A stretch of DNA of 63,970 nucleotides, counting the filler, from Raillietiella orientalis (lineage: Eukaryota): the NCBI GenBank assembly GCA_036172245.1. It is 9 parts of 9 records of this genome, joined end to end, with 100 filler letters (N's around TTAATTAATTAA, not from the genome) between each part and the next. Parts side by side here need not be neighbours in the genome. Positions count along the whole stretch, not along the records: positions 29,580 to 36,772 come from JAYWIR010000306.1; 8 more parts are not named here. One strand, given 5' to 3'. A model generated the notes under the pieces. That model made no database searches and was not told the DNA's origin. It saw only the letters and a program-made list of their open reading frames with translations. Made by a program: the position numbers and the translations under genes. Position 1 is the stretch's first letter, and each line of letters begins with the position of its first letter. Below, one piece after another: positions 22,262-42,800 of the stretch.

Positions 22262-25200
22262 CGAGGAAGTGGGGATGTGATAAAGGTGCCGTTGCATCCA
22301 CGGGGAAAGGAATCCGTTCGGATGCTCGGAAGGAGCTTAAAGATGTAATCGACATTTTAGAAATTGATTAGATATCAGCAGATACTGCAAGTTTGCACTC
22401 AAAAAAGGAAGATGGAGGGTAAAAACTTCATCTGTCCATTGCAAAAATGGTTGGCATTAAATCCGGACTACCACCAATCCTTCCATCTTGAAATTAGTTC
22501 GGTTCTCCTATGATTTCTTCTCGTGGAGCTAGAGTTGCGGACGAAGTGGGGATGTGATAAAGGTGCCTTTGCATCCACGGGGAAAGGAATCCGTTCGGAT
22601 GCTCGGAAGGAGCCGAACGATGTAATAGACATTATAGAAATTGTCTTGATATCACCAGAGACTGCAAATTTGCACTGAAAAAAGGAAGATCGAAGGGAAG
22701 AAAACTTTTTCGGTCCATTGCAAAAAAGGTTGCCATGAAAACCAGACTAACACCAATCCTGCCATCTTGAAATTAGTTCGGTTCTCCTATGATTTCTTCT
22801 CGTGGAGCTAAAGTTTCGGAGGAAGTGGGGATGTGATAAAGGTGCCTTTGCATCCACGGGGAAAGGAATCCGTTCGGATGCTCGGAAGGAGCTTGAAGAT
22901 GTAATCGACATTATAGAAATTGATTAGATATCAGCAGACACTGCAAATTTGCACTGAAAAAAGGAAGATCGAAGGGAAGAAAACTTTTTCGGTCCATTGC
23001 AAAAAAGGTTGCCATGAAAACCAGACTAACACCAATCCTGCCATCTTGAAATTAGTTCGGTTCTCCTATGATTTCTTCCCTTGGAGCAAGGGATTCCGAG
23101 GAAGCGGGGATGTGATAAAGGTGCCGTTGCATCCACGGGGAAAGGAATCCGTTCAGATGCTCGGAAGGAGCTTAAAGATGTAATCGACATTATAGAAATT
23201 ATTAGATATCAGCAGACACAGCAAATTTGCACTGAAAAAAGGAACATGGAGGGTAAAAAACTTCATCTCTCCATTGCAAAAAAGGTTGCCATGAAAACCA
23301 GACTAACACCAATCCTGCACTCATGAAATTAGTTCGGTTATCCTATGATTTCTTCTTGCGGAGCAAGGGATTCCGAGGAAGTGGGGATGTGATAAAGGTG
23401 CCTTTGTATCCATGGGGAAAGGAATCCGTTGGGATGCTCGGAAGGAGCCGAACGATGTAATAGACATTATAGAAATTGTCTTGAAATCACCAGACACTGC
23501 AAATTTGCACTGAAAAAAGGAAGATGGAGGGAAGAAAACTTTATCTGTCCATTGCAAAAAAGGTTGCCATGAAAACCAGACTAACACCAATCCTGCACTC
23601 TTGAAATTAGTTCGGTTCTCCTATGATTTCTTCTCGTGGAGCAAGGGATTCCGAGGAAGCGGGGATGTGATAAAGGTGCCGTTGCATCCACGGGGAAAGG
23701 AATCCGTTCGGATGCTCGGAAGGAGCTTGAAGATGTAATCGACATTATAGAAATTGATTAGATATCAGCAGACACTGCAAATTTGCACTGAAAAAGGAAG
23801 ATGGAGGGTAAAAAACTTCATCTGTCCATTGCAAAAAAGGTTGCCATGAAAACCAGACTAACACCAATCCTGCCATCTTGAAATTAGTTCGGTTCTCCTA
23901 TGATTTCTTCCCTTGGAGCAAGGGATTCCGAGGAAGTGGGGATGTGATAAAGGTGCCTTTGCAACCATGGGGAAAGGAATCTGTTCGGATGCTCGGAAGG
24001 AGCTTAAAGATGTAATAGACATTAAAAAAATTGATTAGATATCAGCAGACACTGCAAATTTGCACTGAAATCAGGAAGATGGAGGGAAAAAAACTTCATC
24101 TGTCCATTCAAAAATGGTTGCCATGAAAACCGGACTACCACCAATCCTTCCATCTTGAAATTAGTTCGGTTCTCCTTTGATTTCTTCTCGTGGAGCTAAA
24201 GTTTCGGAGGAAGTGGGGATGTGATAAAGGTGCCTTTGCATCCACGGGGAAAGGATTCCGTTCGGATGCTCGAAAGGAGCCGAACGATGTAATAGACATT
24301 ATAGAAATTGTCTTGAAATCACCAGACACTGCAAATTTGCACTGAAAAAACGAAGATGGAGGGAAGAAAACTTCATCTCTCCATTGCACAAATGGTTGCC
24401 ATGAAAACCAGACTAACACCAATCCTGCCATCTTGAAATTAGTTCGGTTCTCCTATGATTTCTTCCCTTGGAGCAAGGGATTCCGAGGAAGTGGGGATGT
24501 GATAAAGGTGCCTTTGCATCCATGGGGAAAGGAATACGTTCGGATGCTCGGAAGGAGCCGAACGATGTAATAGACATTATAGAAATTTTCTTGAAATCAC
24601 CAGACTCTGCAAATTTGCACTGAAAAAAGGAAGATGCAGGGTAAAAAACTACATCTCTTCATTGCAAAAATGGTTGCCATGAAAACCAGACTAACACCAA
24701 TCCTGCCATCTTGAAATTAGTTCGGTTCTAAAATGATTTCTTCCCTTGGAGCAAGGGATTCCGAGGAAGCGGGGATGTGATAAAGGTGCCGTGGCATCCA
24801 TGGGGAAAGGAATCCGTTCGGATGCTCGGAAGGAGCTTAAAGATGTAATCGACATTATAGAAATTGATTAGATATCAGCAGACACTGCAAATTTGCACTG
24901 AAAATAGGAAGATGGAGAGAAAAAAACTTCATCTGTCCTTTGCAAAAATGATTGCCATGAGAACCAGACTAACACCTGTCCTGCCATGTTGCAATTAGTT
25001 CGGTTCTCCTATGATTTCTTCACGTGGAGCAAGAGATTCGGAGGAAGTGGGGATGTGATAAAGGTGCCTTTGCATCCATGGGGAAAGGAATCCGTTCGGA
25101 TGCTCAAAAGGAGGTTAAAGATGTAATCGACATTATAGAAATTAATTAGATATCAGCAGACACTGCAAATTTGCACTGAAAAAAGGAAGATGGAGGGTAA

Positions 25201-28200
25201 AAAACTTCATCTGTCCATTGCAAAAATGGTTGCCATGAAAACCAGACTAACACCAATCCTGCCATCTTGAAATTAGTTCGGTTCTCCTATGATTTCTTCC
25301 CTTGGAGCAAGGGATTCCGAGGAAGTGGGGATGTGATAAAGGTGCCTTTGCATCCATGGGGAAAGGAATCCGTTCGGATGCTCGGAAGGAGCTGAAAGAT
25401 GTAATCGACATTATAGAAATTGTCTAGATATCAGCAGACACTGCAAATTTGCACTGAAAAAAGGAAGATGGAGGGTAAAAAACTTCATCTGTCCATTGCA
25501 AAAATGGTTGCCATGAAAACCAGACTAACACCAATCCTGCCATCTTGAAATTAGTTCGGTTCTCCTATGATTTCTTCCCTTGGAGCAAGGGATTCCGAGG
25601 AAGTGGGGATGTGATAAAGGTGCCGTTGCATCCACGGGGAAAGGAATCCGTTCGGATGCTCGGAAGGAGCTTAAAGATGTAATCGACATTATAGAAATTG
25701 ATTAGATATCAGCAGACACTGCAAATTTGCACTGAAAAAAGGAAGATGGAGGGTAAAAAACTTCATCTGTCCATTGCAAAAATGGTTGCCATGAAAACCA
25801 GACTAACACCAATCCTGCCATCTTGAAATTAGTTCGGTTCTCCTATGATTTCTTCCCGTGGAGCAAGAGATTCGGAGGAAGTGGGGATGTGATAAAGGTG
25901 CCTTTGCATCCATGGGGAAAGGAATCCGTTCGGATGCTCGGAAGGAGCCGAACGATGTAATAGACATTATAGAAATTGTCTTGAAATCACCAGACACTGC
26001 AAATTTGCACTGAAAAAAGGAAGATGGAGGGAAGAAAACTTCATCTGTCTATTGCAAAAATGGTTGCCATGAAAACCAGACTAACACCAATCCTGCCATC
26101 TTGAAATTAGTTCGGTTCTCCTATGATTTCTTCTCGTGGAGCAAGGGATTCCGAGGAAGTGGGGATGTGATAAAGGTGCCGTTGCATCCATGGGGAAAGG
26201 AATCCGTTCGGATGCTCGGAAGGAGCTTAAAGATGTAATCGACATTATAGAAATTGATTAGATATCAGCAGACACTGCAAATTTGCACTGAAAAAAGGAA
26301 GATGGAGGGTAAAAACTTCATCTGTCCATTGCAAAAATGGTTGCCATGAAAACCGGACTAACACCAATCCTGCCATCTTGAAATTAGTTCGGTTCTCCTA
26401 TGATTTCTTCCCTTGGAGCAAGGGATTCCGAGGAAGTGGGGATGTGATAAAGGTGCCGTTGCATTCACGGGGTAGGAATCCGTTCGGATGCTCGGAAGGA
26501 GCTTAAAGGTGTAATAGACATTAAAAAAATTGATTAGATATCAGCAGACACTGCAAATTTGCACTGAAAAAAAAAGATGGAGGGTAAAAAACTTCATCTG
26601 TCCATTGCAGAAAAGGTTGCCATGAAAACCAGACTAACACCAATCCTGCACTCTTGAAATTAGTTCGGTTATCCTATGATTTCTTCTCGCGGAGCAAGGG
26701 ATTCCGAGGAAGTGGGGATGTGATAAAGGTGCCTTTGCATCCCTGGGGAAAGGAATCCGTTGGGATGCTGGGAAGGTGCTTAAAGATGTAATAGACATTA
26801 TAGAAATTGATTACATATCAGCAGACACTGCGAATTTGCACTGAAAATAGGAAGATGGAGGGTAAAAAACTACATCTCTCCATTGCAAAAATGGTTGCCA
26901 TGAAAACCGGACTAACACCAATCCTGCCATCTTGAAATTAGTTCGGTTCTCCTATGATTTCTTCCCTTGGAGCAAGGGATTCCGAGGAAGTGGGGATGTG
27001 ATAAAGGTGTTTTTGCATACATGGGGAAAGGAATCCGTTCGGATGCTCGGAAGGTGCCGAACGATGTAATAGACATTATAGAAATTTTCTTGATATCACC
27101 AGACACTGCAAATTTGCACTGAAATAAGAAAGATGGAGGGAAGAAAACTTCATCTCTCCATTGCAAAAATGGTTGCCATGAAAACCAGACTAACACCAAT
27201 CCTGCCATCTTGAAATTAGTTCGGTTCTCCTATGATTTCTTCCCTTGGAGCAAGGGATTCCTAGGAAGTGGGGATGTGATAAAGGTTCCGTTGCATCCAC
27301 GGGGAAAGGAATCCGTTCGGATGCTCGGAAGGAGCCGAACGATGCAATAGACATTATAGAAATTGTCTTGAAATCACCAGACACTGCAAATTTGCACTGA
27401 AAAAGGAAGATGGAGGGTAAAAAACTTCATCTGTCCATTGCAAAAAAGGTTGCCATGAAAACCAGACTAACACCAATCCTGCCATCTTGAAATAAGTTCG
27501 GTTCTCCTATGATTTCTTCTCGTGGAGCAAGGGATTCCGAGGAAGTGGGGATGTGATAAAGGTGCCGTTGCATCCACGGGGAAAGGAATCCGTTCGGATG
27601 CTCGGAAGGAGCTTAAAGATGTAATAGACATTATAGAAATTGATTAGATATCAGCAGACACTGCAAATTTGCACTGAAAAAGGAAGATGGAGGGTAAAAA
27701 ACTTCATCTGTCCATTGCAAAAAAGGTTGCCATGAAAACCAGACTAACACCAATCCTGCACTCTTGAAATTAGTTCGGTTATCCTATGATTTCTTCTCGC
27801 GGAGCAAGAAATTCGGAGGAAGTGTTGATGTGATAAAGGTGCCTTTGCATCCATGGGGAAAGGAATCCTTTAGGATGCTCGGAAGGTGCTTAAAGATGTA
27901 ATGAACATTATAGAAATTGATTAGATATCAGCAGACACTGCAAATTTGCACTCAAAAAAGGAAGATGGAGGGTAAAAACTTCATCTGTCCATTGCAAAAA
28001 TGGTTGCCATGAAAACCGGACTAACACCAATCCTGCCATCTTGAAATTAGTTCGGTTCTCCTATGATTTCTTCCCTTGGAGCAAGGGATTCCGAGGAAGC
28101 GGGGATGTGATAAAGGTGCCGTTGCATCCACGGGGAAAGGAATCCGTTCGGATGCTCGGAAGGAGCTTGAAGATGTAATCGACATTATAGAAATTGATTA

Positions 28201-29479
28201 GATATCAGCAGACACTGCAAATTTGCACTGAAAAAGGAAGATGGAGGGTAAAAAACTTCATCTGTCCATTGCAAAAAAGGTTGCCATGAAAACCAGACTA
28301 ACACCAATCCTGCCATCTTGAAATTAGTTCGGTTCTCCTATGATTTCTTCCCTTGGAGCAAGGGATTCCGAGGAAGTGGGGATGTGATAAAGGTGCCTTT
28401 GCAACCATGGGGAAAGGAATCTGTTCGGATGCTCGGAAGGAGCTTAAAGATGTAATAGACATTAAAAAAATTGATTAGATATCAGCAGACACTGCAAATT
28501 TGCACTGAAATCAGGAAGATGGAGGGAAAAAAACTTCATCTGTCCATTCAAAAATGGTTGCCATGAAAACCGGACTACCACCAATCCTTCCATCTTGAAA
28601 TTAGTTCGGTTCTCGTTTGATTTCTTCTCGTGGAGCAAAAGTTTCGGAGGAAGTGGGGATGTGATAAAGGTGCCTTTGCATCCACGGGGAAAGGATTCCG
28701 TTCGGATGCTCGAAAGGAGCCGAACGATGTAATAGACATTATAGAAATTGTCTTGAAATCACCAGACACTGCAAATTTGCACTGAAAAAACGAAGATGGA
28801 GGGAAGAAAACTTCATCTCTCCATTGCACAAATGGTTGCCATGAAAACCAGACTAACACCAATCCTGCACTCTTGAAATTAGTTCGGTTCTCCTATGATT
28901 TCTTCCCTTGGAGCAAGGGATTCCGAGGAAGTGGGGATGTGATAAAGGTGCCTTTGCATACATGGGGAAAGGAATCCGTTCGGATGCTCGGAAGGAGCCG
29001 AACGATGTAATAGACATTATAGAAATTTTCTTGAAATCACCAGACACTGCAAATTTGCACTGAAAAAAGGAAGATGCAGGGTAAAAAACTACATCTCTTC
29101 ATTGCAAAAATGGTTGCCATGAAAACCAGACTAACACCAATCCTGCCATCTTGAAATTAGTTCGGTTCTCCTATGATTTCTTCCCTTGGAGCAAGGGATT
29201 CCGAGGAAGTGGGGATGTGATAAAGGTTCCGTTGCATCCACGGGGAAAGGAATCCGTTCGGATGCTCGGAAGGAGCTTAAAGATGTAATCGACATTTTAG
29301 AAATTGATTAGATATCAGCAGACACTGCAAATTTGCACTGAAAAAAGGAAGATGGAGGGTAAAAAACTTCATCTGTCCATTGCAAAAATGGTTGCCATGA
29401 AAACCAGACTAACACCAATCCTGCCATCTTGAAATTAGTTCGGTTCTCCTATGATTTCTTCCCTTGGAGCAAGGGATTC
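22262..29479. repeat. Tandem satellite array, 277-278-bp monomer (subfamily B2), ~26 copies
   Basis: Same backbone as 7561-14842 with diagnostic variants (ctaacaccaatcctgccatcttgaaattag; gatgtaatcgacattatagaaattgattagatatcagcagac). Confidence 0.97.
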
Positions 29480-29579
29480 NNNNNNNNNNNNNNNNNNNNN
29501 NNNNNNNNNNNNNNNNNNNNNNNTTAATTAATTAANNNNNNNNNNNNNNNNNNNNNNNNNNNNNNNNNNNNNNNNNNNN

Positions 29580-31292
29580 ATTCAGTTTCCCTGCTGAAGA
29601 AGTGGGTTTTTCACTGCCGGCATCACTCTCGGTGCCGGTGTGATCAGTGGACTCCTGTTCGTCCACAGAGCGTTCCGCCTTGGCGACCACCTTGCGCGGA
29701 AGGGTCTCCAGCGAGACCGTCGCACAGAATGCCGCCTTCAGGTCGCCCAGCTGGTCCTCCAGCTTTTCCCGCTCTGGTTCTACAACCATGCGGTTTACGT
29801 CGTCTTGGACCTCGCAGATGCGGTTCAGGATTTTTGCCTGTTCCGCCTCCGGTTGGCCCTGGCGAACCTCCTCTGCCAGTTTAACCACCTCCTCGGAAAG
29901 TTGCAGGGCCTCCTGCGTCTCCGGGACTGGTTCTGGCGTCTTCTCCTCCTTCTCCGTTTCCTCCGCCACCTCCATACTCTCGCCTACCGCCGCTTCAACT
30001 ACCGGGGTTTGAGGAATCTGTTGCTCCCTTGCGAGCATCTTCCTTTTCCCCTTCTTCCCCACCTCCACGAAGCCGTCTGCCGAAACCGGAGCGGCCTCTC
30101 TTGTTTTCCTCTGCTTTGCTAGCTGAGGTTTGATTACCTCAGCTAGCACCCTTTCCCTCACCGGAGACTCTCCTCTAATCGTCCGGTAGTTTGCATACTC
30201 CGGACAACTCCATTTCGCATGCCCTGGTTGCTTGCAAAAGGAGCAAAGCTCGGGCATGCTACAGTTCCGGACCTGGTGGCCCTGTTTCCCGCACCTGAAG
30301 CAGCGAGATCTAGGGCAGGCACCCATCCGGTGGCCAAAGTCCTTGCAACCGAGACAGAAGATCGGTTGCTGGCGGTACCTGACGTTCACCTCTTGCGAGG
30401 CTTCGTCAATGTGCACCAAACCGGGGATTTGGGCACCTTCTTTAAGCTTAATTTTGGCGATTACTTCGCCCGAGAAGATGTCTCCAGAGATGTTCTGGAA
30501 GTTTACTTCCAGAACCTCTCCGTATTTCTCCAGGAAATCCCACACCGTTTCTTGTTCGGTGAAGATTCCCACTCCGCTGAGGTGGACGGTGGTGTAAGGC
30601 ATTTCTCCTACGCCTTGTACCATTTTCCCCTGAATATTGATGCCCTTTTCGATTAGGGCCTCCCGCAATTCATCGCAGTCCGTGTACAGTGTAAAACCTG
30701 ACGTGCTGGGAATGATCGCTTGGAGACGATCAAAGTCGACGTTGGTTTTAAAAAGAGCACAGTACACCTCTCTTACATTGTTAAACCGGATCAATCCGGT
30801 TTTAAACATAACTGGTTTCGACGCTGGACTTAGGCGAACCATTGGTTCTTTGCATCGCGTGATGCGTCCAGTCGTCGGCTTCTTGAAAGTTCGGTTTGGC
30901 TGGGCAGAGGCCTGCCCCGCCGTAACCGCCGCATACGAAAACGGCTTTGTAGCCGAACCCGAACAAGATGGCGTCGCCATGTACGCCGCGTGGACGCCCG
31001 GGGCTCCCGCCTGGGACGCCGCCGCCGCCGCTGCGGGCGCAACCCTCGTCGTCGCCGTCGCTGATGTCGCCGTAGGCGGGACCTTCGGCATCGCCGCCGC
31101 CGGCACGACCTTCCCCGCCGCGGGCGCGATCCTCGGCGTCGCCGCCGCGGGCACGACCTCCATCGCCGTCGCCGCGGGCACGACCCTCGGCATCGCCGCC
31201 GCCGGCGCAGCAAAGCCTGCCGCGGGCGCGACCCTCGGCGTCGCCGCTGCCTCCTCGCCACTGCCGCATATTACCTCCATGTGTTCTTCCAT
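29580..31292 (-). CDS. Retrotransposon ORF1 (nucleic-acid-binding protein with 3 CCHC zinc knuckles), downstream copy, 3'-truncated by the contig end
   Basis: Three CX2CX4HX4C motifs (CLGCKDFGHRMGAC, CFRCGKQGHQVRNC, CSFCKQPGHAKWSC) follow an RRM-like segment (VHLSGVG..FLEKYGEVLEV). The N-terminus has Ala/Pro-rich repeats. First ATG is at 31292; the ORF track starts at GTG 31376. Confidence 0.88.
31020..31255 (-). repeat. GC-rich coding minisatellite in the ORF1 N-terminus (AAATPRVAP-like units)
   Basis: Recurrent gccgcgggc(a/g)cgaccctcggc(g/a)tcgccgccgc units, translated as AAATPRVAPAA / AAAMPRVVPAA / AAATPRIAPAA. Confidence 0.8.
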
Positions 31293-31465
31293 GGGGGTCG
31301 ACGGCTGCTCCACTCCTTGGATGTGCCTCCTTGCGGCTGCCGTTGCTGCCGCACTTCTTGTTTGGAGGACTTCCACCTCGGGTCCTTCGGCGCTGCTGCT
31401 GCTGCTGCTGTCGGGTATTTACGTCGGTGGCACAGTCACTTCCACAGTATCTTTCACTAGGCACT

Positions 31466-31596
31466 TGCCCTCTCGGGGCACGCAAAAATTGCCGCGGCAG
31501 TGGTTTTACGCACTGCCTTGGCGGGGTATTGGGTAAAGTTTTCAACTAGCAATAATCGCGGCTCAGTCGCCTTCCTCGCCTACGATTTTCCCCAAG
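31466..31596 (-). ncRNA. U4: U4 spliceosomal snRNA sequence, 5'-truncated by ~9-10 nt
   Basis: The minus strand reads CTTGGGGAAA ATCGTAGGC GAGGA AG GCGA CT GA GCCGCGAT TATTGCTAGTTGAAAACTTTACCCAATACCCCGCC ... GGCAATTTTTG CG TGCCCCGAGAGGGCA. This gives a kink-turn 5' stem-loop, the U6 stem-I segment TGCTAGTT, the conserved central GAAAACTTT.CCCAATACCCCGCC, an Sm site AATTTTTG (31483-31490) and a terminal hairpin. It matches metazoan U4 as I recall it; no database search was run. Confidence 0.9.
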
Positions 31597-31617
31597 TCCC
31601 ACAGGGGGTGGGGTGAA

Positions 31618-31623
31618 TTTATT
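31618..31623 (-). promoter_or_regulatory. Polyadenylation signal AATAAA at the 3' end of the retroelement
   Basis: Lies ~105 nt after the ORF2 stop, at the end of an AT-rich tract. No poly(A) tail follows. Confidence 0.6.
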
Positions 31624-31728
31624 TTCTATAAAAATACAATTTTACATTCACACTCACATTCACTCTATGTCTACTCTTTGTCTTTCACTTTGAAGTCCTG
31701 GGGGGTACACTAGAGTTCTGCTTTTACC

Positions 31729-34700
31729 TCAGGGTGGATTTCCAGCTGGATGGTCCCGGGCGTCGTCCTCGATCCTCTTCAGGATGAATCTGTACGTCCA
31801 GGCTTGGATGCGTCCACAATTCCTGATGCCGATCTCCTTCTTGATGAGTCCTTGCAGGATCTCCATCGGGGTTGCGGCTCTGCTGGCTCTTCTCATCTTC
31901 CACCACCGCACAAGTATGGCGGTGATGAAGAGGGCAATGGTCGTCCTCACCATGGGATTGTAACAGGGAACATTACCATCTCCCTGAAACATCCCGGCGA
32001 GGATCTCCATCACGGAACTGGTCGTCATTCCAATGATCCTTTTCAGGATCAGCCAGTCGTGAAGGAGTGTGGGACACGTCAAGATGTGAAGTCTTGTATC
32101 GTTGTCACCACACGCCGTGCAGTCTCCGTCTTCCCGTCTTCTGGTGAAGTGCTTGAGTCTGGACCCGCTCAGGATACCTCCATGGTAAAACATCAGGAGG
32201 TTGTCCTGGGTGTCCGGCGGAAGGTCACTCCTCCAGAGCGTTGTGCCGATCGCCAACAGGTTGATGCGATCGCTCCCGTAGCGGTCGGCGGCTTCTTGGA
32301 GGGCACTGGTATCCTTTTCTTCGTCTTTGATCATCTTCCGGAGGTTCATTTTGGTCACCCTCGACCATGCGAAGTCGTTGTGGTTAATCCACACCTCGCG
32401 GGTCTGGTGGGTGAACCTCCCTAACATCATCTCTATGTACCGGAGTACACGAGAATGATGTAGGTATCCTCCTCGGCGCCATTCCTGGATCCGTTGCAGG
32501 GTAACTCTGGGCCGCTGGTAGATCCAGCTTCTCGTGTCCGGAGGGACCGGAAGCATCCAGGGGATCACCAGGATGGACTCGTCCTGCCAGAGTTCCCTGC
32601 TTCTTGGCACGATCTTCATCTTGTGCTTTCGCACAAGCCGCTGTTTTCTTCTCCAGGTAGGGTCGATGGTGATCCATTCCCCTGCTCGGCCTAGCAGCGC
32701 AGTCATCAGGCCTTTCGAGTTGTTCAGCAACAACGCGTAGGCCCTGTGCGCCGCATACGGCCAGTCATCCCAGTGAGTGGCTATGTCCAGGATGTGTCGC
32801 GTATCCATGATTTCCATGGAATGTGCAGGCGACTTCATCCCGGAACCGCCTTCTTCCCTGGGACGACACAGAGGTTTGAGACGGACTCTTGGGCGATAAT
32901 GGCCCCACAAAGTTTTCCTCTGCAGCTTTTCTACTTCTCTTGTGGTTTCTTTATTCATTCGTGCGAAGGCCGCCCCGAAGAGTATCTTTGGTAGAAGTAC
33001 TCCGTTCCACAGGTTGGCTCTTCGCTTCATGTTAAAGTCCACTCGAGTGTACTTCGCTGCTTCGTTGGCCGTTTTCCCCAGGATTTCCGTCCACAGCAGT
33101 TTCGACGCAGAGTCGTCGCCGATGTAGACTCCCAGGTACTTGGCCGTGTCCACCGTACGGAATCCACTCCCCGTTAGAATGGAGAGGTTCAGGATTCCGA
33201 CGGGCAAAAGCTGGCTCTTTTGGGCATTGATTTTCAAGCCCAGTCCCTGTTCCATGAGGTCGACCACATCCAGGAACGCTCGTTGATTCCTCTCTCCCTT
33301 GATGAAGAAGAGGAGATCATCTGCGTATGCCAGATGGGTCAGGTGCTGACCATCAATGGAAATCCCTGATAGACGACCGCTTCTCTCGATGTAAGAAGAC
33401 AGCGCCTCCATGTATATGACGAACAGCATTGGACTTAGCGAGTCGCCCTGCCGGACTCCTCGTTCCATCCTAATTGCTGCCGTCTCTTGGCCGTTGATTT
33501 TGATACGGCAGTACTGGTTTTGGAGTACCGCCCTCACGAAGTTGCTGAAGTGTTCCGGAAGCCCAAGCTTCTCCAGAACCTTCAGCAGCATCCCGTGGTC
33601 GATGGAGTCGAAGGCCTTCTCCATGTCGGTGAACACCAGCACCAGGTTCTCGCCGACGTATCGGCTGAGACCGACGGTGGCCTGGGCACACTTAACATTG
33701 TCAGACATGTGTCGTCCTGGGACTGCACACGTCTGGACCGGAGAGATCAGCCTCGACATGACCCTGCCTAAGCGGTTGGACCAGATCTTCGCCAACCACT
33801 TGGCATCTGAGTTTAGGATCGAGATCGGCCTCCATTGAGCGATCTGCGTGAGATCGCCTCCTTTTGGCAGCAATCTCATCCTACTCTCGTAGAAGGATTC
33901 CGGAAGTCGTCCTTCTTCTCGGATGCAGAGTGTCAACTGGTGGAACAAACGCAGGTAGGCGTGCAGGTACCGCTGATAGTGCGAGATGGGTACACTATCA
34001 GGGCCTGCTGCCACATCCTTGCGAAGCTGCCCAAACGCAGTCTTCACTTCCTCTTCGGAGAACTCCTCCTCCAGTCTATTTCTTTGGAGGTCGTCCGTCC
34101 TCTTCTCGAGGTAACCCAGGAAGGCTTGCTGACTCGAGCGGCAGAGATCTTGTCGTCGGAAGTGTCTCGCGTAATGCCTGTGAAAGGCTTCCGCGATATC
34201 CTCCGACGTGTGCCGCTCTTGGCCGTCGTACTGGATGCAGAAGATATCTGTGGCCAGATTCCTCTTTTCCAGCACGCCGACCTCCCCTTTCGTGTTCTGG
34301 AAGACGTACCGACTCTCGTACTGATCGAAGTACTTCGAGAGGGAGCGATCTTGGATGTTCAGCTCCCGGTACGCTTCCTGCCTCATGCGCTTACAGAAGT
34401 ACTGCATATTGCAGAACAGATGGATTCTGTGCTTCAACCGGTCCCAGTCGGCGACCCTGCGGATGGTAGTATCTTGCAGGATCGCCTCGATGACTTCCTG
34501 GTGACCGGGAAGCGTTTCGAACCAGGCGGGCATGCAGATGAGCGCCGCCCTGGTGGCCTTTTCTTTACGAGGATTCTCAGTGCGGAGTGTAAACCGTACC
34601 AATGGGTGATCGGACAACAGGTGTGGGATGTCACGAAAACCCTGGATGCGGTTGTCTATCTCCGCACTGTGGAGGACGTGATCGATCGGCTTGTGGCTAG

Positions 34701-35247
34701 CTGTTCGCCACACAAGTCCGAACTCGTCGGACAGCCGCCGATACGCCGCTCTTCCTCTTGCATCCTGAGAATATTTAATTTCATCCAGGATGTTGAAATC
34801 CCCAGCGACGATAACTATGTCCTTCGGTGCCACTCGTTTGCGGAGTTCTTCTTGCAGCTTCTCCGCGCACCGATGCTTGATCTTGTGCGGTCCGTAGACG
34901 TTCACCAGGAAGAGGTGAACGTTACTGGACCAGGACAGTCGCACGCCGATTACTCTGCCAGGTACCGGACAGAAGGTTTCCAAAATGGTGTGGGCGAGCT
35001 CGTTCTTGATGAGGATCGCCACCCCCATGGTCTTCTTCTGTCCCTCGCTGGCGAACAGTTGTCCGTCGAATCGGCGTTCCATCTCCAGGGCGTTCTGCTG
35101 CCCGAGACGGTGGATTTCCTGTAGGCATACCACATCCTGTCTTGCGATGGTCCGCATGACACTTTTTCTCTTCCCCTGGTCCGTCAGTCCATTCACATTC
35201 CAGGAGGCGATGTTAATCCTCCTGGCACTGGACAGCGACGAGGCCAT
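31729..35247 (-). CDS. Retrotransposon ORF2, 1172 aa: AP endonuclease + reverse transcriptase + C-terminal CCHC finger (L1/Tx1-like), intact
   Basis: APE motifs NIASWNVNGL, CLQE, NVYGP, AGDFN, IDH, SDH. RT motifs WRPISILNSDAK, DMEKAFDSIDH, GVRQGDSLSP, YADD, KYLGV. C-terminal CTACGDNDTRLHILTC. No stops or frameshifts. Confidence 0.96.
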   Translation of the reverse strand: MASSLSSARRINIASWNVNGLTDQGKRKSVMRTIARQDVVCLQEIHRLGQQNALEMERRFDGQLFASEGQKKTMGVAILIKNELAHTILETFCPVPGRVIGVRLSWSSNVHLFLVNVYGPHKIKHRCAEKLQEELRKRVAPKDIVIVAGDFNILDEIKYSQDARGRAAYRRLSDEFGLVWRTASHKPIDHVLHSAEIDNRIQGFRDIPHLLSDHPLVRFTLRTENPRKEKATRAALICMPAWFETLPGHQEVIEAILQDTTIRRVADWDRLKHRIHLFCNMQYFCKRMRQEAYRELNIQDRSLSKYFDQYESRYVFQNTKGEVGVLEKRNLATDIFCIQYDGQERHTSEDIAEAFHRHYARHFRRQDLCRSSQQAFLGYLEKRTDDLQRNRLEEEFSEEEVKTAFGQLRKDVAAGPDSVPISHYQRYLHAYLRLFHQLTLCIREEGRLPESFYESRMRLLPKGGDLTQIAQWRPISILNSDAKWLAKIWSNRLGRVMSRLISPVQTCAVPGRHMSDNVKCAQATVGLSRYVGENLVLVFTDMEKAFDSIDHGMLLKVLEKLGLPEHFSNFVRAVLQNQYCRIKINGQETAAIRMERGVRQGDSLSPMLFVIYMEALSSYIERSGRLSGISIDGQHLTHLAYADDLLFFIKGERNQRAFLDVVDLMEQGLGLKINAQKSQLLPVGILNLSILTGSGFRTVDTAKYLGVYIGDDSASKLLWTEILGKTANEAAKYTRVDFNMKRRANLWNGVLLPKILFGAAFARMNKETTREVEKLQRKTLWGHYRPRVRLKPLCRPREEGGSGMKSPAHSMEIMDTRHILDIATHWDDWPYAAHRAYALLLNNSKGLMTALLGRAGEWITIDPTWRRKQRLVRKHKMKIVPRSRELWQDESILVIPWMLPVPPDTRSWIYQRPRVTLQRIQEWRRGGYLHHSRVLRYIEMMLGRFTHQTREVWINHNDFAWSRVTKMNLRKMIKDEEKDTSALQEAADRYGSDRINLLAIGTTLWRSDLPPDTQDNLLMFYHGGILSGSRLKHFTRRREDGDCTACGDNDTRLHILTCPTLLHDWLILKRIIGMTTSSVMEILAGMFQGDGNVPCYNPMVRTTIALFITAILVRWWKMRRASRAATPMEILQGLIKKEIGIRNCGRIQAWTYRFILKRIEDDARDHPAGNPP

Positions 35248-35263
35248 GAAAGGGGGGGGAGTC

Positions 35264-36772
35264 CTACTTCACCTTTCTTGCCTTCCTTAGCTTCTTCTGC
35301 TGGGGAGACTTATTCAGTTTCCCTGCTGAAGAAGTGGGTTTTTCACTGCCGGCATCACTCTCGGTGCCGGTGTGATCAGTGGACTCCTGTTCGTCCACAG
35401 AGCGTTCCGCCTTGGCGACCACCTTGCGCGGAAGGGTCTCCAGCGAGACCGTCGCACAGAATGCCGCCTTCAGGTCGCCCAGCTGGTCCTCCAGCTTTTC
35501 CCGCTCTGGTTCTACAACCATGCGGTTTACGTCGTCTTGGACCTCGCAGATGCGGTTCAGGATTTTTGCCTGTTCCGCCTCCGGTTGGCCCTGGCGAACC
35601 TCCTCTGCCAGTTTAACCACCTCCTCGGAAAGTTGCAGGGCCTCCTGCGTCTCCGGGACTGGTTCTGGCGTCTTCTCCTCCTTCTCCGTTTCCTCCGCCA
35701 CCTCCATACTCTCGCCTACCGCCGCTTCAACTACCGGGATTTGAGGAATCTGTTGCTCCCTTGCGAGCATCTTCCTTTTCCCCTTCTTCCCCACCTCCAC
35801 GAAGCCGTCTGCCGAAACCGGAGCGGCCTCTCTTGTTTTCCTCTGCTTTGCTAGCTGAGGTTTGATTACCTCAGCTAGCACCCTTTCCCTCACCGGGGAC
35901 TCTCCTCTAATCGTCCGGTAGTTTGCATACTCCGGACAACTCCATTTCGCATGCCCTGGTTGCTTGCAAAAGGAGCAAAGCTCGGGCATGCTGCAGTTTC
36001 GGACCTGATGGCCCAACTTCCCACAGCGGAAGCAACGCGACCTTGGGCAGGCGCCCAAGCGGTGCCCGAAATTTTTGCAGCCGGTGCAAAAGATCGGCTG
36101 CTGCCTATATCTGACGGAAACGTCTTGCGACGATTCGTCGATATGGACATTGCCTGGGATCTGCGCCCCGTCCTTCAATTTAATTTTGGCGATCAACTCG
36201 CCCGAGAAGATGTCTCCGGAGATGTTCTGGGTCTTCATTTCCAGAACTTCTCCGTATTGGGACAGGAAGTCCCATATCGCTTCTCTCTCGGTGAGGATGC
36301 CAATTCCACTTAGGAAGACTGTCGTGTAAGGCATTTCGCCAATGCCTTGCACCATCTTCCCCTGAATGTTGATGCCCTTTTCGATAAGGGCCTCCCGCAG
36401 CTCTTCGCAGTCAGTATACAGGATGAATCCCGCTGAGTTCGGGATTATCGCCTGCAATCGATCAAAGTCGACATTTGTCCTATACAGCGCACAATACACC
36501 TGCCTTATGTTATTAAACCGGACCAGCCCGGTTTTAAAGGTGATGGGTTTGGACGCTGGACTCAACTTCACCATGGGTTCTTTGGTTCGAGTGATGTTCT
36601 CACTCGCAGGCTTCCCGAATTTCCTGTTTGGCAGGGCAGAGGCCTGCCCCGCCGTCACCGCCGCATACGAAAACGGCGGTTTCGCCGCCGCCGCCGAGCA
36701 AGATGGCGTCGCACCTTGCCCTGTGTGCGCCGCGTGGACGCCCGCGGCTCCCGCCTGGGACGCCGCCGCCAC
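35264..36772 (-). CDS. Retrotransposon ORF1, upstream copy (5'-truncated by the contig end)
   Basis: Three zinc knuckles (CTGCKNFGHRLGAC, CFRCGKLGHQVRNC, CSFCKQPGHAKWSC) and a basic C-terminus KKLRKARKVK. The TAG stop is 16 nt before the ORF2 ATG. Confidence 0.9.
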   Translation of the reverse strand: MAAASQAGAAGVHAAHTGQGATPSCSAAAAKPPFSYAAVTAGQASALPNRKFGKPASENITRTKEPMVKLSPASKPITFKTGLVRFNNIRQVYCALYRTNVDFDRLQAIIPNSAGFILYTDCEELREALIEKGINIQGKMVQGIGEMPYTTVFLSGIGILTEREAIWDFLSQYGEVLEMKTQNISGDIFSGELIAKIKLKDGAQIPGNVHIDESSQDVSVRYRQQPIFCTGCKNFGHRLGACPRSRCFRCGKLGHQVRNCSMPELCSFCKQPGHAKWSCPEYANYRTIRGESPVRERVLAEVIKPQLAKQRKTREAAPVSADGFVEVGKKGKRKMLAREQQIPQIPVVEAAVGESMEVAEETEKEEKTPEPVPETQEALQLSEEVVKLAEEVRQGQPEAEQAKILNRICEVQDDVNRMVVEPEREKLEDQLGDLKAAFCATVSLETLPRKVVAKAERSVDEQESTDHTGTESDAGSEKPTSSAGKLNKSPQQKKLRKARKVK

Positions 36773-36872
36773 NNNNNNNNNNNNNNNNNNNNNNNNNNNN
36801 NNNNNNNNNNNNNNNNTTAATTAATTAANNNNNNNNNNNNNNNNNNNNNNNNNNNNNNNNNNNNNNNNNNNN

Positions 36873-39800
36873 ACTGCAAATGTATGCTTAGCGAAAAGCA
36901 GCAAAAGTGCATTAGTAAAATCCCCTGATTTCCAATTTATTCCAAGCCTGTAAGGTTGCAAATTGTTACCACATCTTGAATCAGAGCGAAGTATAAGATT
37001 CCTCTTCTAGGTACGACACTGCTTACCATGAAAACAACACAGAGACCAAAGTGCCACGCCCTAACCAATTTTCGACCTCTTCTTAGTCATCCTCTGAAAT
37101 CAGGAAATTGGAAGGCCGTGAGCCTCTCCATGACATGAATTTGCCACTCACTGCAAATAGATGCTTCGTGAAGAGGAGCAAAACGGCAATGGTGAAATTC
37201 CCTGATTTCGAATTGATTACAAAACTTGAAAAGTTGCAAATTACTACCATATAATGAATCAGAACGAAGTATAAGATTCCACATCCAGGTAGGACTCTGT
37301 TTACCATGAAAACAACACAGAGACCAAAGTGCTACGCCCTAATCTAATTTCGAACTCTTCTTAATCATCCTCTTAAATCAGGAAATTGGAAGCCCTTGAG
37401 GCTCTTCATGACGGCAATTTGCCACTCACTGGAAATAGATGCTTCGCGAAGAGGTGCAAAACTGCAATGGAGAAATCCTTGGGTTTGGAATTGATTACAA
37501 AGCCTGCAAGGTAGCAAATTTTTACCACATCATGGATCAGAGCGAACGAAAATATTCCTCTTCTAGGAACGACAGTGGTTACCATGAAGTCAACACAGAG
37601 ACCAAAGTACCACCCCCTATTCTAATTTCGAACGCTTCTTAATCATCCGCTGTAATCAGGAAATTGGCAGGCCTTGAGGCTTTCCATGACGGAAATTTGC
37701 CACTCACTGCAAATGTATGCTTAGTGAAAAGGCGCAAAAGTGCTATAGTAAAATCCCCTTTTTTCCAATTGGTTACAAACCCTGAAAGTTTGCAAATTTT
37801 TACCACATACTGAATTAAAGCGAAGGGAAAAATTCCTCTTCTAGGTACGACACTGGTTACTATGAAAACAACAGAGACCCCAAAGTGCCACGCCCTAATG
37901 TAATTTCGAACACTTCATAATCATCCTCTGAAATCGGGAAATTGGAAGGCCTTGAGTCTCTTCATGACGGGAATTTGCCACTTATTGCAAATGGATGCTT
38001 AGTGAAGAGGCGCAAAACTGCAATGGAGATATCCCCTGATTTCGAATTGATTACAAAGCCTGAAAGGTTGCAAATTTCTACCAGATCAAGAATCAGAGCG
38101 AAGGTAAAGATTCCTCTTCTAGGAAAGACAGTGGTTACCATGAAAACAACACAGAGACCAAAGTGCCACGCCCTAACCTAGTTTCGACCTCTTCTTAGTC
38201 ATCCTCTTAAATCAGGAAATTGGAAGGCCGTGAGCCTCTCGATGACATGAATTTGCCACTCACTGCAAATAGATGCTTCGTGAAGAGAAGCAAAACTGCA
38301 ATGGTGAAATTCCCTGATTTCGAATTGATTACAAAACTTGAAAAGTTGCAAATTACTACCATATAATGAATCAGAACGAAGTATAAGATTCCACATCCAG
38401 GTAGGACACTGTTTACCATGAAAACAACACAGAGACCAAAGTGCTACGCCCTAATCTAATTTCGAACTCTTCTTAATCATCCTCTTAAATCAGGAAATTG
38501 GAATCCCTTGAGGCTGTTCATGACGGCAATTTGCCACTCACTGGAAATAGATGCTTCGCGAAGAGGTGCAAAACTGCAATGGAGAAATCCCCGGGTTTCG
38601 AATTGATTACAAAGCCTGTAAGGTAGCAAATTTTTACCAGTTCATGGATCAGAGCGAACGAAAATATTCCTTTTCTTGGAACGACAGTGGTTAATATTAA
38701 GACAACACAGATACCAACGTACCACCCCCTATTCTAATTTCGAACACTTCTTAATCATCCGCTGTAATCAGGAAATTGGAAGGCCTTGAGGCTTTCCATG
38801 ACGGAAATTTGCCACTCACTGCAAATGTATGCTTAGTGAAAAGGCGCAAAAGTGCTATAGTAAAATCCCCTGATTTCCAATTGGTTACAAACCCTGAAAG
38901 TTTGCAAATTTTTACCACATACTGAATTAAAGCGAGGGAAAAATTCCTCTTCTAGGTACGACACTGGTTACTATGAAAACAACAGAGAGCCCAAAGTGCC
39001 ACGCCCTAATCTAATTTCGAACACTTCATAATCATCCTCTGAAATCGGGAAATTGGAAGGCCTTGAGTCTCTTCATGACGGGAATTTGCCACTTACTGCA
39101 ATTGGATGCTTACTGAAAAGGCGCAATTGTGCAAAAGTAATTTCCCCTGATTTTTAGTTGATTACAAAGCATGAAAGGATGCAAATTTCTAGCACATCAT
39201 GAATGAGAGCGAAGTATGAGATTCCTCTTCTAGGTACGACACTGCTTACCATGAAAACAACACAGAGACCAAAGTGCCACGCCCTAACCAATTTTCGACC
39301 TCTTCTTAGTCATCCTCTGAAATCAGGAAATTGGAAGGCCGTGAGCCTCTCCATGACATGAATTTGCCACTCACTGCAAATAGATGCTTCGTGAAGAGGA
39401 GCAAAACTGCAATGGTGAAATTCCCTGATTTCGAATTGATTACAAAACTTGAAAAGTTGCAAATTACTTCCATATAATGAATCAGAACGAAGTATAAGAT
39501 TCCACATCCAGATAGGACACTGTTTACCATGAAAACAACACAGAGACCAAAGTGCTACGCCCTAATCTAATTTCGAACTCTTCTTAATCATCCTCTTAAA
39601 TCAGGAAATTGGAATCCCTTGAGGCTCTTCATGACGGCAATTTGCCACTCACTGGAAATAGATGCTTCGCGAAGAGGTGCAAAACTGCAATGGAGAAATC
39701 CTTGGGTTTCGAATTGATTACAAAGCCTGCAAGGTAGCAAATTTTTACCACATCATGGATCAGAGCGAACGAAAATATTCCTCTTCTAGGAACGACAGTG

Positions 39801-42800
39801 GTTACCATGAAGTCAACACAGAGACCAAAGTACCACCCCCTAATCTAATTTCGAACACTTTTTAATCATCCGCTGTAATTAGGAAATTGGAAGGCCTTGA
39901 GGCTTTCCATGACGGAAATTTGCCACTCACTGCAAAAGTATGCTTAGTGAAAAGGCGCAAAATTGCTATAGTAAAATCCCCTGATTTCCAATTGGTTGCA
40001 AACCCTGAAAGTTTGCAAATTTTTACCACATACTGAATTAGAGCGAAGGAAAAAATTCTCTTCTAGGTACGACACTGGTTACTATGAAATCAACAGATAG
40101 ACCAAAGTGCCACGCCCTAATCTAATTTCGAACACTTCATAATCATCCTCTGAACTCGGGAAATTGGAATGCCTTGAGTCTCTTCATGACGGGAATTTGC
40201 CACTTACTGCAAATGTATGCTTAGTGAAAAGGCGCAATGGTGCAACAGTAATATCCACTGATTTCCAATTGATTATAAAGCCGGAAAGGTTGCATATTTT
40301 TACCACATCATGAATCAGAGCGAAGGAAAAGATTACTTTTCTAGGTACGACACTGGTTACCATGAAAACAACACAGAGTACAAAGTGCCACGGCCTATTG
40401 AAATTTCGACCTCTTCTTAATCATGCTCTGAAATAGGGAAATTGGTAGGCCTTGAGCCTCTCCATAACAAGAATTTGCCACACACTGCAAATGTATGCTT
40501 AACGAAAAGCAGCAAAAGTGCAATAGTAAAATCCCCTGATTTCCAATTTATTCCAAGCCTGTAAGGTTGCAAATTCTTACCACATCTTGAATCAGAGCGA
40601 AATATAAGATTCCTCTTCTAGGTACGACACTGCTTACCATGAAAACAACACAGAGACCAAAGTGCCACGCCCTTACCTAATTTCGAACTTCTCTTAGTCA
40701 TCCTGTGATATCAGGAAATTGGAAGGCCGTGAGCCTCTCCATGACATGAATTTGCCACTCACTGCAAATAGATGCTTCGTGAAGAGGAGCAAAACTGCAA
40801 TGGTGAAATTCCCTGATTTCGAATTGATTACAAAACTTGAAAAGTTGCAAATTACTACCATATAATGAATCAGAACGAAGTATAAGATTCCTCTTCTAGG
40901 TAGGACACTGTTTACCATGAAAAGAACACAGAGACCAAAGTGCCACGCCCTTACCTAATTTCGAACTTCTCTTAGTCATCCTGTGATATCAGGAAATTGG
41001 AAGGCCGTGAGCCTCTCCATGACATGAATTTGCCACTCACTGCAAATAGATGCTTCGTGAAGAGGAGCAAAACTGCCGTGGTGAAATTCCCTGATTTCGA
41101 ATTGATTAAAAAACTTGAAAAGTTGCAAATTACTACCATATAATGAATCAGAAAAAGCATAAGATTCCTCTTCTAGGTAGGACACTGTTTACCGTGAAAA
41201 GAACACAGAGACCAAAGTGCCACGCTTTAATCTAATTTCGAACTCTTCTTAATCATCCTCTGAAATCAGGAAATTGGAAGCCCTTGAGGCTCTTCATGAC
41301 GGCAATTTGCCACTCACTGGAAATAGATGCTTCGCGAAGAGGTGCAAAACTGCAATGGAGAAATCCCCGCGTTTCGAATTAATTACAAAGCCTGTAAGGT
41401 AGCAAATTTTTACCACATCATGGATCAGAGCGAACGAAAATATTCCTCTTGTAGGAACGACAGTGGTTACCATTAAGACAACACAGAGACCAAAGTGCCA
41501 CCCCCTAATCTAATTTCGAACACTTCTTAATCATCCGCTGTAATCAGGAAATTGGAATGCCTTGAGGCTTTCCATGACGGAAATTTGCTACTCACTGCAA
41601 ATGTATACTTAGTGAAAAGGCGCAAAAGTGCTATAGTAAAATCCCCTGATTTCCAATTGGTTACAAACCCTGAAAGTTTGCAAGTTTTTACCACATACTG
41701 AATTAGAGCGAACGAAAAAATTCTTCTTCTAGGTACGACAATGGTTACTATGAAAACAACAGATAGACCAAAGTACCACGCCCTAATCTGATTTCGGACA
41801 CTTCATAATCATCCTCTGAACTCGGGAAATCGGAAGGCCTTGAGTCTCCTCTTGACGGGAATTTGCCACTTACTGCAGATGTATGCTAAGTGAAAAGGCG
41901 CAATAGTGCAACAGTAATATCCTCTGATTTCCAATTGATTACAAAGCCGGAAAGGTTGCAAATTTTTACCACATCATGAATCAGAGCGAAGGAAAGGATT
42001 GCTTTTCTAGGTACGACACTGCTTACCATGAAAACGACACAGAGACCAAAGTGCCACGCCCTAACCTATTTTCGACCTCTTCTTAGTCATCCTCTGAAAT
42101 CAGGAAATTTGAAGGCCGTGAGCCTCTCCATGACATGAATTTGCCACTCACTGCAAATGTATGCTTAGCGAAAAGCAGCAAAAGTGCAATAGTAAAATCC
42201 CATGATTTCCAATTTATTCCAAGCCTGTAAGGTTGCAAATTTTTACCACATCTTGAATCAGAGCGAAGTATAAGATTCCTCTTCTAGGTACGACACTGCT
42301 TACCATGAAAACAACACAGAGACGAAAGTGCCACGCCCTAACCAATTTTCGACCTCTTCTTAGTAATCCTCTGAAATCAGGAAATTGGAAGGTTGTGAGC
42401 CTCTCCATGACATGAATTCGCCACTCACTGCAAATAGATGCTTCGTGAAGAGGAGCAAAACTGCAATGGTGAGATTCCCTGATTTCGAATTGATTACAAA
42501 ACTTGAAAAGTTGCAAATTACTACCATATAATGAATCAGAACGAAGTATAAGATTCTTCTTCCAGGAAGGACACTGTTTACCATGAAAACAACATAGAGA
42601 CCAAAGTGCCACGCCCTAATCTAATTTCGAACTCTTCTTAATCATTCTCTGAAATCAAAAATTTGGAAGCCCTTGAGGCTCTTCATGACGGCGATTTGCC
42701 ACTCAATGGAATTAGATGCTTTGAGAAGAGCTGCAAAACTGCAATGGAGAAATCCCCGGGTTTCGAATTGATTACAAAGCCTGTAAGGTAGCAAATTTTT

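Follow-up and report, generated by a model that had tools for sequence, protein, structure and literature searches.

The window examined here is a stretch of 63,970 nucleotides from Raillietiella orientalis, composed of nine unrelated contigs of about 7 kb that are spliced by artificial spacers. One single contig (29580-36772, 7.2 kb) harbors both a previously undescribed LINE, with three CCHC knuckles in ORF1, an ORF2 composed of an APE-type endonuclease, a reverse transcriptase and a Cys/His motif, and a 3' end without poly(A), and a copy of the U4 snRNA. All ORFs and the U4 copy of this contig lie on the minus strand (Table 1). In the direction of transcription the order is copy A of the element, U4, copy B, and the two element copies are diverged from each other. 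The contig holds one ORF2 and two partial ORF1s, which amounts to 1.25 units, and matches itself with a period of 5.73 kb. Both of its ends fall inside repeats that are common to copies A and B. The tandem arrays proposed in an earlier note on this DNA therefore correspond to one contig of the joined stretch. Six of the nine contigs of the window are satellites over their whole length. The neighboring contigs consist of satellite arrays of 7 kb whose units differ by 8-17%, which suggests that a long-read assembly lies behind them; the 7.2 kb contig would then come close to single-molecule evidence.

Table 1. Features of the element contig and its boundaries (positions in the window)
Feature	Position	Strand	Remarks
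Artificial spacer N44-TTAATTAATTAA-N44	29480..29579	.	contig boundary
ORF1, copy B, ATG 31292 to contig edge	29580..31292	-	aligns with copy A ORF1
5' leader, downstream copy B	31293..31446	-	(CAG)n run at ~31415..31391
20 nt past the U4 3' hairpin, ..AGTGAAAGATAC	31447..31466	-	
U4 snRNA copy, without first ~9-12 nt	31467..31596	-	Rfam; consensus-like sequence begins 31596
3'UTR of copy A	31597..31728	-	AATAAA; terminal hairpin; without poly(A)
ORF2, copy A, 1172 aa, uninterrupted	31729..35247	-	
ORF1, upstream copy A	35264..36772	-	Pfam zf-CCHC; aligns with copy B ORF1
Matching artificial spacer, opposite side of element contig	36773-36872		contig boundary

The ORF1 frame of copy A is open up to the contig edge at 36772, and its ATG-started part (36574..35264) encodes 436 aa. 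The 5' end and the leader are missing, so that copy A cannot be taken for the intact element that had been described before. Copy B keeps its leader and the start of ORF1, including the CCHC knuckles (30356..30204). Judged against copy A, its ORF1 stops about 14 codons short of its end, and the 3' end lies off the contig. The two ORF1 copies differ by 2 mismatches in about 680 nt, beside a stretch that is only about 75-80% identical, and this mosaic identity shows frequent recombination.

ORF2 contains an APE-type endonuclease at residues 14-214 (Pfam Exo_endo_phos, 8e-18) and a reverse transcriptase at residues 462-708 (RVT_1, 2e-33) with YADD at 641-644. A CX2CX7HX3C motif is located near the C-terminus (residues 1043-1058); Pfam zf-RVT gave no score on ORF2 at E 0.01 or better. 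The best match among solved structures is human L1 ORF2p (E 8.4e-56, versus 1e-26 for R2). ORF2 is an APE-type member of the L1 superfamily. It is at most 35% identical to anything among 1.84 billion representatives. In a quick reverse transcriptase tree (61 rows without Repbase references, midpoint root, deep forks open) ORF2 pairs with the unnamed metagenome protein P0049 (33% identity), falls into the half with plant and algal L1-like rows and stands apart from L007, a Keno-like relative. This quick tree lends no support to the earlier assignment to the Tx1 type. When 40 metagenome relatives were scanned with Rfam, one of them, L007, was found to have U2 nt 1-41 immediately ahead of it and oriented alike, hence snRNA-gene homing occurs among the relatives of ORF2. 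U4-like sequence was present in none of 80 distant metagenome relatives, and a search of metagenome contigs with a 24-nt U4 pattern gave no match.

The U4 copy and its joints to the element

Rfam, run at the gathering threshold on the whole window, returned a single match. This is U4 (RF00015) on the minus strand (31606..31467), oriented like the ORFs, with 75.6 bits compared to a cut-off of 46, E 5.5e-15 and model positions 1-138 of 138. Even a permissive scan gave no further match on the element contig. Three U4 landmarks can be recognized, namely the 5' stem-loop (31586..31555, base-paired as aligned by cmscan), an Sm site AAUUUUUG at 31490..31483 and, at 31479..31467, the 3' hairpin. The start of the molecule is different. 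Model position 1 is placed at 31606, only 5 of the first 10 model positions agree, one base is inserted, and close agreement begins at CUUGGGG (31596), the first 9-12 letters being off consensus. The consensus U4 5' end is of the AUCUUUGCG type and includes UUGCGC, which forms stem II together with U6, an RNA that is nearly invariant. This core is missing from the cmscan alignment and, judged against the general U6 sequence, the stem II-forming 5' end (about nt 1-16) is absent; the copy is therefore not a working gene. The 5' motif AKCTTTGCGC, with one mismatch tolerated, does not occur in 31293-31466, and its 8 matches across the window compare with 8.6 expected by chance. The U4 copy is the only one in the window, neither an empty intact U4 gene nor a fragment of U4 nt 1-9 was found anywhere, and the element contig contains no U4 promoter.

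Upstream of U4, the 3'UTR of copy A carries the TATA-like TATTTTTATAG (31636..31626), the AATAAA (31623..31618, 21 nt ahead of CUUGGGG) and a terminal hairpin, CCCAC-CCCCU-GUGGG (31612..31598). The element end ..CCCCCTGTGGGA abuts U4 directly, with neither a poly(A) nor an A-rich tail. Downstream, the leader of copy B starts 20 nt past the U4 piece, and these 20 nt may be genomic U4 3' flank. The ORF1 ATG of copy B is located 174 nt beyond the U4 3' end, with no A-run in between, and the U4 5' fragment that would be expected upstream of a full-length, target-specific LINE is not seen in 31293-31466. The earlier note had described a near-complete U4 in the same orientation behind the AATAAA, starting at about nt 10 and followed by an ORF1 ATG after some 175 nt, with neither a U4 5' end nor poly(A) in between. 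The above-threshold RF00015 match and the measured distances bear this description out.

A second joint was identified in a public DNA run, here called X1, which looks independent and possibly derives from the same sample or species as the window. A 455-nt contig of X1 (word depth 25.9) spans the ORF2 end through U4 without a branch at the joint (31597) and stops at 31462. Its ORF2 end has 17 differences in 172 nt (about 10% diverged), and the following 108 letters, which link ORF2 to the shared block, cannot be aligned to the 104-nt 3'UTR stretch of the window. The shared block begins exactly at 31636. It contains the final 40 nt of copy A (31636..31597) and U4, and from 31636 to 31462 only 4 differences in 175 nt are found. 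The element-U4 joint is thus seen in two diverged copies, and this recurrence argues against a pure one-off. The same species must be present in X1, since further contigs match ORF2 exactly (2 records, 0 differences). Because X1 may share sample or species with the window, the two insertions need not be independent. Another X1 contig contains the leader of copy B (31132-31446, depth 7.55) and fits the window from 31446; 6 letters are omitted at 31392, and hence the leader varies in length. Beyond 31446 this contig goes on for 45 letters that are unlike the U4 3' end and flank. Among the X1 pieces listed, none bridges U4 and the leader (31446-31462).

Discussion

The analysis shows that the U4 is genuine, how the locus is laid out, that ORF2 is intact, and that one and the same joint occurs in two diverged copies. 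Our leading explanation, which we hold tentatively and at slightly less than even confidence, is a new U4-gene-specific LINE of the L1 superfamily whose mode of action resembles that of Keno and Utopia at U2 genes. About 9-12 nt into the U4 gene, counted from its 5' end, the endonuclease of the element would nick the bottom strand, and reverse transcription would be primed at the nick from the conserved, hairpin-ended 3' terminus and not from a poly(A) tail. A terminus of this kind, with a small hairpin and no poly(A), is also found in LINEs which start reverse transcription at a defined 3' end. The outcome would be U4 nt ~10 to the end directly 3' of every copy, and the U4 piece would be of host origin. 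Copy B might be a neighboring insertion in a U4 cluster, presumably giving the tandem arrangement, and its 5' junction would have lost the U4 5' fragment and the spacer, as has been reported for Utopia in the U2 arrays of Phytophthora. Against U4 specificity stands that the joint is seen in two copies only, that no empty intact U4 gene was found and that the metagenome relatives lack U4-like sequence, and against simple targeting that the predicted U4 5' fragment is missing ahead of copy B. Mosaic divergence is normal in this family, so a conserved host target does not follow from the low divergence of the U4 block. Abundant identical, uninterrupted U4 genes should also branch the assembly graph at the joint, yet the X1 contig runs unbroken.

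Insertion of LINEs into small RNA genes has precedents. SLACS, CZAR and CRE occupy a site about 11 nt past the start of the spliced-leader RNA genes of trypanosomatids. The element described here would likewise sit close to the start of a small RNA gene transcribed by Pol II, and the promoter of that gene could drive it. However, SLACS, CZAR and CRE belong to an early-branching clade and use a restriction-like endonuclease, while ORF2 is APE-type and L1-like. U2 snRNA gene-specific non-LTR retrotransposons were reportedly described by Kojima and Fujiwara in 2004. Keno is an APE-type element of the Tx1 clade, and Utopia has a restriction-like endonuclease. Both resemble our element in that the 3' end of a non-LTR retrotransposon, lacking poly(A), meets a precise internal position of an snRNA gene that is oriented alike, and also in the occurrence in tandem or arrays and in an upstream 5' target fragment that can be missing. 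They differ in their target, nt 38/39 of U2 instead of about nt 10 of U4, and specificity rests here on two copies. According to Kojima and Jurka (PMC4640811), Keno and Utopia use one insertion site in U2 genes, tandem insertion of Utopia is occasional, and in Phytophthora U2 arrays the expected 5' U2 fragment is missing upstream of Utopia elements. The spliceosomal RNA gene targets listed there in 2015 are U2 (Keno, Utopia) and U1 and U6 (Dada DNA transposons). Our full-text search of the published literature found no U4-targeting transposon. Mutsu, a 5S rRNA gene-specific LINE of the Tx1 clade, is also an APE-type element and resides in tandemly repeated small-RNA genes, its subfamilies corresponding to variants of the target (PMC5340908). 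However, its target and lineage are different, and a target array is not visible in our contig. LINEs with a fixed target site lend themselves to inserting genes at safe harbours, and they illustrate how multicopy RNA genes can sustain mobile elements. With a U4-specific endonuclease, from a lineage that has no close relatives, both the targets and the specificities available for study would be extended.

It is unlikely, but worth consideration, that the mobile unit itself includes the U4 piece, either as a 5' head or as a read-through 3' tail (3' transduction). In the 5'-head version the unit would comprise U4 nt 10 to the end, the 20 nt, leader, ORF1 and ORF2. By annealing, the carried U4 would direct the element to U4 genes, and head-to-tail arrays would accumulate. 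The A-U4-B layout, with just 20 nt from U4 to the leader of copy B, fits a unit boundary, the 5.73 kb self-match fits a repeating unit, and the unbranched X1 contig is expected if this version of U4 sits mainly beside the element. In addition, R2-type elements are known to use co-transcribed target sequence at the 3' end of their RNA. However, the 45 letters ahead of the leader in X1 speak against an obligatory U4 head, and the U4-headed unit of the earlier note is without direct support. The end of the U4-bearing X1 contig at 31462 suggests several different continuations. A protein-level search revealed no U4-leader joint elsewhere, in a collection that apparently lacks this organism. It seems similarly doubtful, and a shade more so, that the element RNA uses the U4 body, from nt ~10 to its end together with a short flank, as a working part, either head or tail, which anneals to nicked U4 genes. 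If true, each insertion would restore or duplicate the U4 target and lengthen a head-to-tail array, and the LINE would both parasitise and regenerate an essential snRNA gene. It may then borrow the U4 promoter, Sm site or 3' processing signals. Should the element indeed carry the U4 piece, the LINE would be renewing its target in a novel manner.

Still less probable is a one-off joint that was multiplied as DNA without any target specificity. It could have arisen by insertion beside a U4 pseudogene or as a template-switch or ligation chimera of U4 snRNA and LINE RNA, followed by amplification through tandem or segmental duplication and reshuffling by gene conversion. The whole-length satellites suggest a leftover contig set that is rich in tandem arrays, and the repeat period and the mosaic identity with its frequent recombination would fit as well. 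LINE-1 is known to make sense-oriented chimeras with U1-U6 snRNAs, U6/L1 among them, in which the snRNA lies directly 5' of the LINE; according to bioRxiv 10.1101/2025.02.02.635956, the snRNA is mostly full-length, the LINE 5'-truncated and the chimera a dead end. Here, however, it is U4 that is 5'-truncated, and about 20 nt after its hairpin follows a LINE with leader and ORF1 start, not a 5'-truncated one. Moreover, the 3' end of another copy directly abuts this U4, and this joint recurs. Uniform decay after duplication would likewise not predict that the X1 ORF2 end and 3'UTR are far more diverged than the U4 block.

We consider it improbable that U4 and copy B were brought together by a chimeric assembly, which would leave the joint of the element 3' end to U4 as the only real one. 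On either side of 31446-31462 the listed X1 contigs stop or diverge, and the element contig ends inside repeats common to both copies, as such an artifact would have it. However, the assembly appears to be long-read, with near single-molecule weight for this contig, and a bridging X1 contig may exist beyond the pieces listed.

Least probable of all is a complete U4 gene with an unusual 5' end, the element ending at 31637 upstream of the TATA-like sequence after insertion into the U4 promoter region and not the coding part: the exact start of the conserved block at 31636, the Rfam alignment from model position 1 (5/10 matches) and the absence of an X1 branch at 31597 would agree with it, but 31606..31597 lacks the UUGCGC core for the U6 pairing, and nothing about AATAAA, an AT-rich stretch and a terminal hairpin is unusual in a LINE 3'UTR.

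A U4 snRNA sequence behind the 3' end of a LINE

The fifth contig of the window (29580-36772, 7193 bp, 56% G+C) carries a LINE copy with ORF1 and ORF2 (copy A), a piece of U4 snRNA behind its 3' end, and then the 5' leader and ORF1 of a second copy (copy B). All element and U4 features lie on the minus strand. The assignment to U4, made in the earlier note from the sequence alone, is borne out by Rfam, where RF00015 matches 31606..31467 (-) with 75.6 bits against a cut-off of 46 (E 5.5e-15). At the gathering threshold this is the sole RNA gene in the whole window, and a permissive scan of the fifth contig yielded nothing beyond U4. The 5' stem-loop, the central single-stranded region, the Sm site and the 3' hairpin align well to the model. 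At model positions 1-10, five of the ten letters agree and one base is inserted, and consensus-like sequence starts at CUUGGGG (31596). Since the stem II letters that pair with U6 are absent, this copy presumably cannot be a working gene, as judged from general knowledge of U4/U6 pairing. The RNA fold of 31640..31440, taken whole, is unremarkable (z -1.8), and short direct repeats near the joints (e.g. AGTGAAAGA, present twice) occur about as often as chance predicts in 531 nt.

Coordinates of the element features, spacers and satellite contigs in the window
Feature	Position	Strand	Description
ORF2, copy A	35247..31729	-	1172 codons, uninterrupted; APE-type endonuclease domain, reverse transcriptase with YADD, C-terminal CX2CX7HX3C motif
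3'UTR, copy A	AATAAA 31623..31618; small terminal hairpin 31612..31598	-	no poly(A)
ORF1, copy B	ATG 31292, 174 nt past the U4 hairpin, open to contig edge	-	three CCHC knuckles
ORF1, copy A	upstream of ORF2, open to opposite contig edge	-	
Artificial spacers	7461-7560, 14843-14942, 22162-22261, 29480-29579, 36773-36872, 44010-44109, 51155-51254, 58208-58307		N44-TTAATTAATTAA-N44
Satellite contigs	1-7460, 7561-14842, 14943-22161, 22262-29479, 36873-44009, 51255-58207		period 277 or 278 bp in five, 180 bp in one

The order of U4, ORF2, 3'UTR and a following ORF1 is as the earlier note had described it; the tandem array in which that note placed them comes down to a single contig that spans 1.25 units (it matches itself with a period of 5.73 kb), and the 5' end of the upstream copy A lies outside the data. 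The two ORF1 sequences are about 75-80% identical over the first ~770 aligned nt and show 2 differences over the last ~680 nt (29580-30290 versus 35310-35990). A and B are therefore distinct copies and not an assembly loop. The mosaic, as read from the alignment, suggests that subfamilies have recombined or undergone gene conversion.

The leader of copy B holds a (CAG)n run (31391-31415) of varying length, with 6 letters omitted in one contig of the public DNA run X1. A loose end of X1 at 31391 was set aside, because it coincides with this run and may belong to some unrelated CAG repeat. The plus strand has an antisense open frame of 298 codons (30640-31536), rich in Ala and Gly, which starts within ORF1 of copy B, crosses the leader and reaches into U4. 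It lacks any homologue, and the high G+C probably accounts for it.

The joint recurs in a diverged copy

X1 contains half of the words sampled from 31250-31800, every other run at most 8%. The region 30300-35260 was compared with X1, for which the longest pieces were listed, and with three RNA runs (X4, X6 and X13). The RNA runs match 31520-31564 only, the U4 core that is near-identical across many organisms, and their sequences run on into U4 versions of other organisms or into adapters; they are therefore uninformative on the element and its expression. X1 contains exact ORF2 pieces (records 5 and 6, identical over 300 and 295 nt) as well as many diverged pieces. Of particular interest is record 2 (455 nt, word depth 25.9), which covers the end of ORF2 (31912..31741) with 17 differences, continues with 108 letters that cannot be aligned to the 104-nt 3'UTR of the window, and then fits 31636..31462 with only 4 differences, stopping five bases beyond the U4 hairpin. 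It thus represents a clearly different copy, in which the last 40 bases of the element lead into U4 at the identical site, and the joint between element 3' end and U4 proposed in the earlier note is recurrent.

Site-specific insertion and competing explanations

Our leading reading, which we hold tentatively, is that this LINE inserts site-specifically into U4 genes. The endonuclease would nick the bottom strand of U4 some 9-12 nt into the gene, and reverse transcription would begin at the defined, hairpin-ended 3' terminus of the element, so that U4 from nt ~10 onward would trail each copy. Copy B, which comes 20 nt after the U4 piece, would have inserted next to it, with loss of the spacer, the promoter and U4 nt 1-9 at its 5' junction. 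The U2-specific Utopia elements offer a direct published precedent: Utopia-1_NVit is "occasionally inserted in tandem in U2 genes", and Utopia copies in the U2 arrays of Phytophthora lack the expected 5' U2 fragment on their upstream side, for which the authors propose either recombination or a top-strand cut at a point upstream of the bottom-strand nick (PMC4640811). U2 downstream of Utopia insertions begins at nt 39, and Keno has the same site (PMC4640811).

Several observations speak against U4 targeting. The joint is present in two copies only, X1 may be the source sample, and no empty U4 gene was seen among the sequences compared. Moreover, mosaic divergence is the rule in this LINE family, and the well-kept U4 block is therefore no proof of a conserved host target. 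The contig of record 2 is also unbranched at the joint, which would fit a U4 piece carried by the element itself, either as the 5' head suggested in the earlier note or as a transduced 3' tail. The tight spacing between U4 and the leader fits this as well, but X1 record 1 (354 nt, depth 7.55) speaks against an obligatory head: it follows the leader and ORF1 start of copy B (31446..31132) and, past 31446, continues with 45 letters unlike the U4 end and its flank. We regard a carried U4 piece as unlikely.

Less likely still is a single event, a template-switch chimera or a chance insertion, that was multiplied as DNA. The contigs of the window are rich in tandem arrays, as multiplication would have it, but the uneven divergence disfavours simple duplication, and the known snRNA/L1 chimeras are full-length snRNAs joined to 5'-truncated LINEs and do not propagate (bioRxiv 10.1101/2025.02.02.635956). 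The link from U4 to the copy-B leader found no corroboration among the longest X1 pieces, the ones listed, although a bridging contig may be present among the others; a protein-level search with the antisense frame 31231-31533 returned no other copies of it. That this link is an assembly error seems improbable to us. Finally, an element that ends at 31637, with a complete but odd U4 and a TATA-like box downstream, would match the start of the conserved block but conflicts with the usual U6 pairing, and we give it very little credence.

Site-specific LINEs in snRNA genes are already known as a kind, and the evidence for U4 specificity is thin. According to the 2015 Utopia paper, the transposons reported for snRNA genes by then were only Keno and Utopia in U2, Dada-U1 and Dada-U6 (PMC4640811), and the 2022 Dada paper makes no mention of U4 snRNA. 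Full-text literature searches, to which Repbase reports and subscription journals were closed, turned up no transposon reported to target U4 genes; a described family could have been missed.

Classification and relatives of the element

The element belongs to the L1 superfamily of LINEs, in a lineage that has no close relatives, and may or may not be of the Tx1 type named in the earlier note. The best solved structure for ORF2 is human LINE-1 ORF2p (E 8.4e-56, reverse transcriptase and flanking domains); the L1 endonuclease structure matches too, and R2 proteins rank behind (1e-26). A word-based search of 5.8 billion proteins gave 46 relatives at E <=1e-3, the strongest of which (E <1e-30) have 23-27% identity. 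The exhaustive HMMER search of 1.84 billion representatives gave 77,328 at the same threshold, with identities of at most 36% among the best 150; the few named top relatives come from a charophyte alga, a turtle and a plant. The ESM Atlas returned generic L1-like clusters only, with taxa unrecorded. For ORF1, a search of similarly long proteins gave no homologue at E <=0.001. In a quick maximum-likelihood tree with 61 reverse transcriptase rows, ORF2 pairs with the metagenome protein P0049 (33% identity, support 100) and is placed, weakly and through open forks, close to L1-like rows from plants and algae.

In metagenome contigs, a profile search confirmed 567 of 595 candidate stretches as relatives, and the best 80 (23-33% identity) were kept. 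An exact 24-nt U4 pattern had 0 matches in the metagenome contigs. Within the 80 kept relatives nhmmer found no U4-like stretch at E <=10, and blastn gave just two 12-nt matches (E 3.1). Rfam on 40 of the 80 detected one small RNA, a U2 fragment in the metagenome locus L007 (15-132), which matches U2 model positions 1-41 exactly with no real match beyond. The fragment has the orientation of the element and immediately precedes it, so that L007 looks like a Keno-type 5' junction of a U2-specific LINE. L007 is a distant relative (25% identity) and stands apart from ORF2 of the window in the quick tree, a weak placement.

Composition of the window

Eight identical artificial spacers split the window into nine contigs of falling size (7460, 7282, 7219, 7218, 7193, 7137, 7045, 6953 and 5663 bp), the last of which stops at the window end; any feature that spans a spacer is therefore meaningless. 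Six of the nine are satellite arrays over their whole length, with 83-92% matches and 25-40 copies per contig, and their long ORFs are repeat artefacts. At the nucleotide level the fifth contig resembles none of the others in the window. Most neighbours have 39-44% G+C, and the ninth contig (58308-63970) has 60% and is LINE-rich too. No small RNA gene lies beside its L1-like pieces, which belong to at least two other elements, occur on both strands and are 23-34% identical to ORF2 of copy A.
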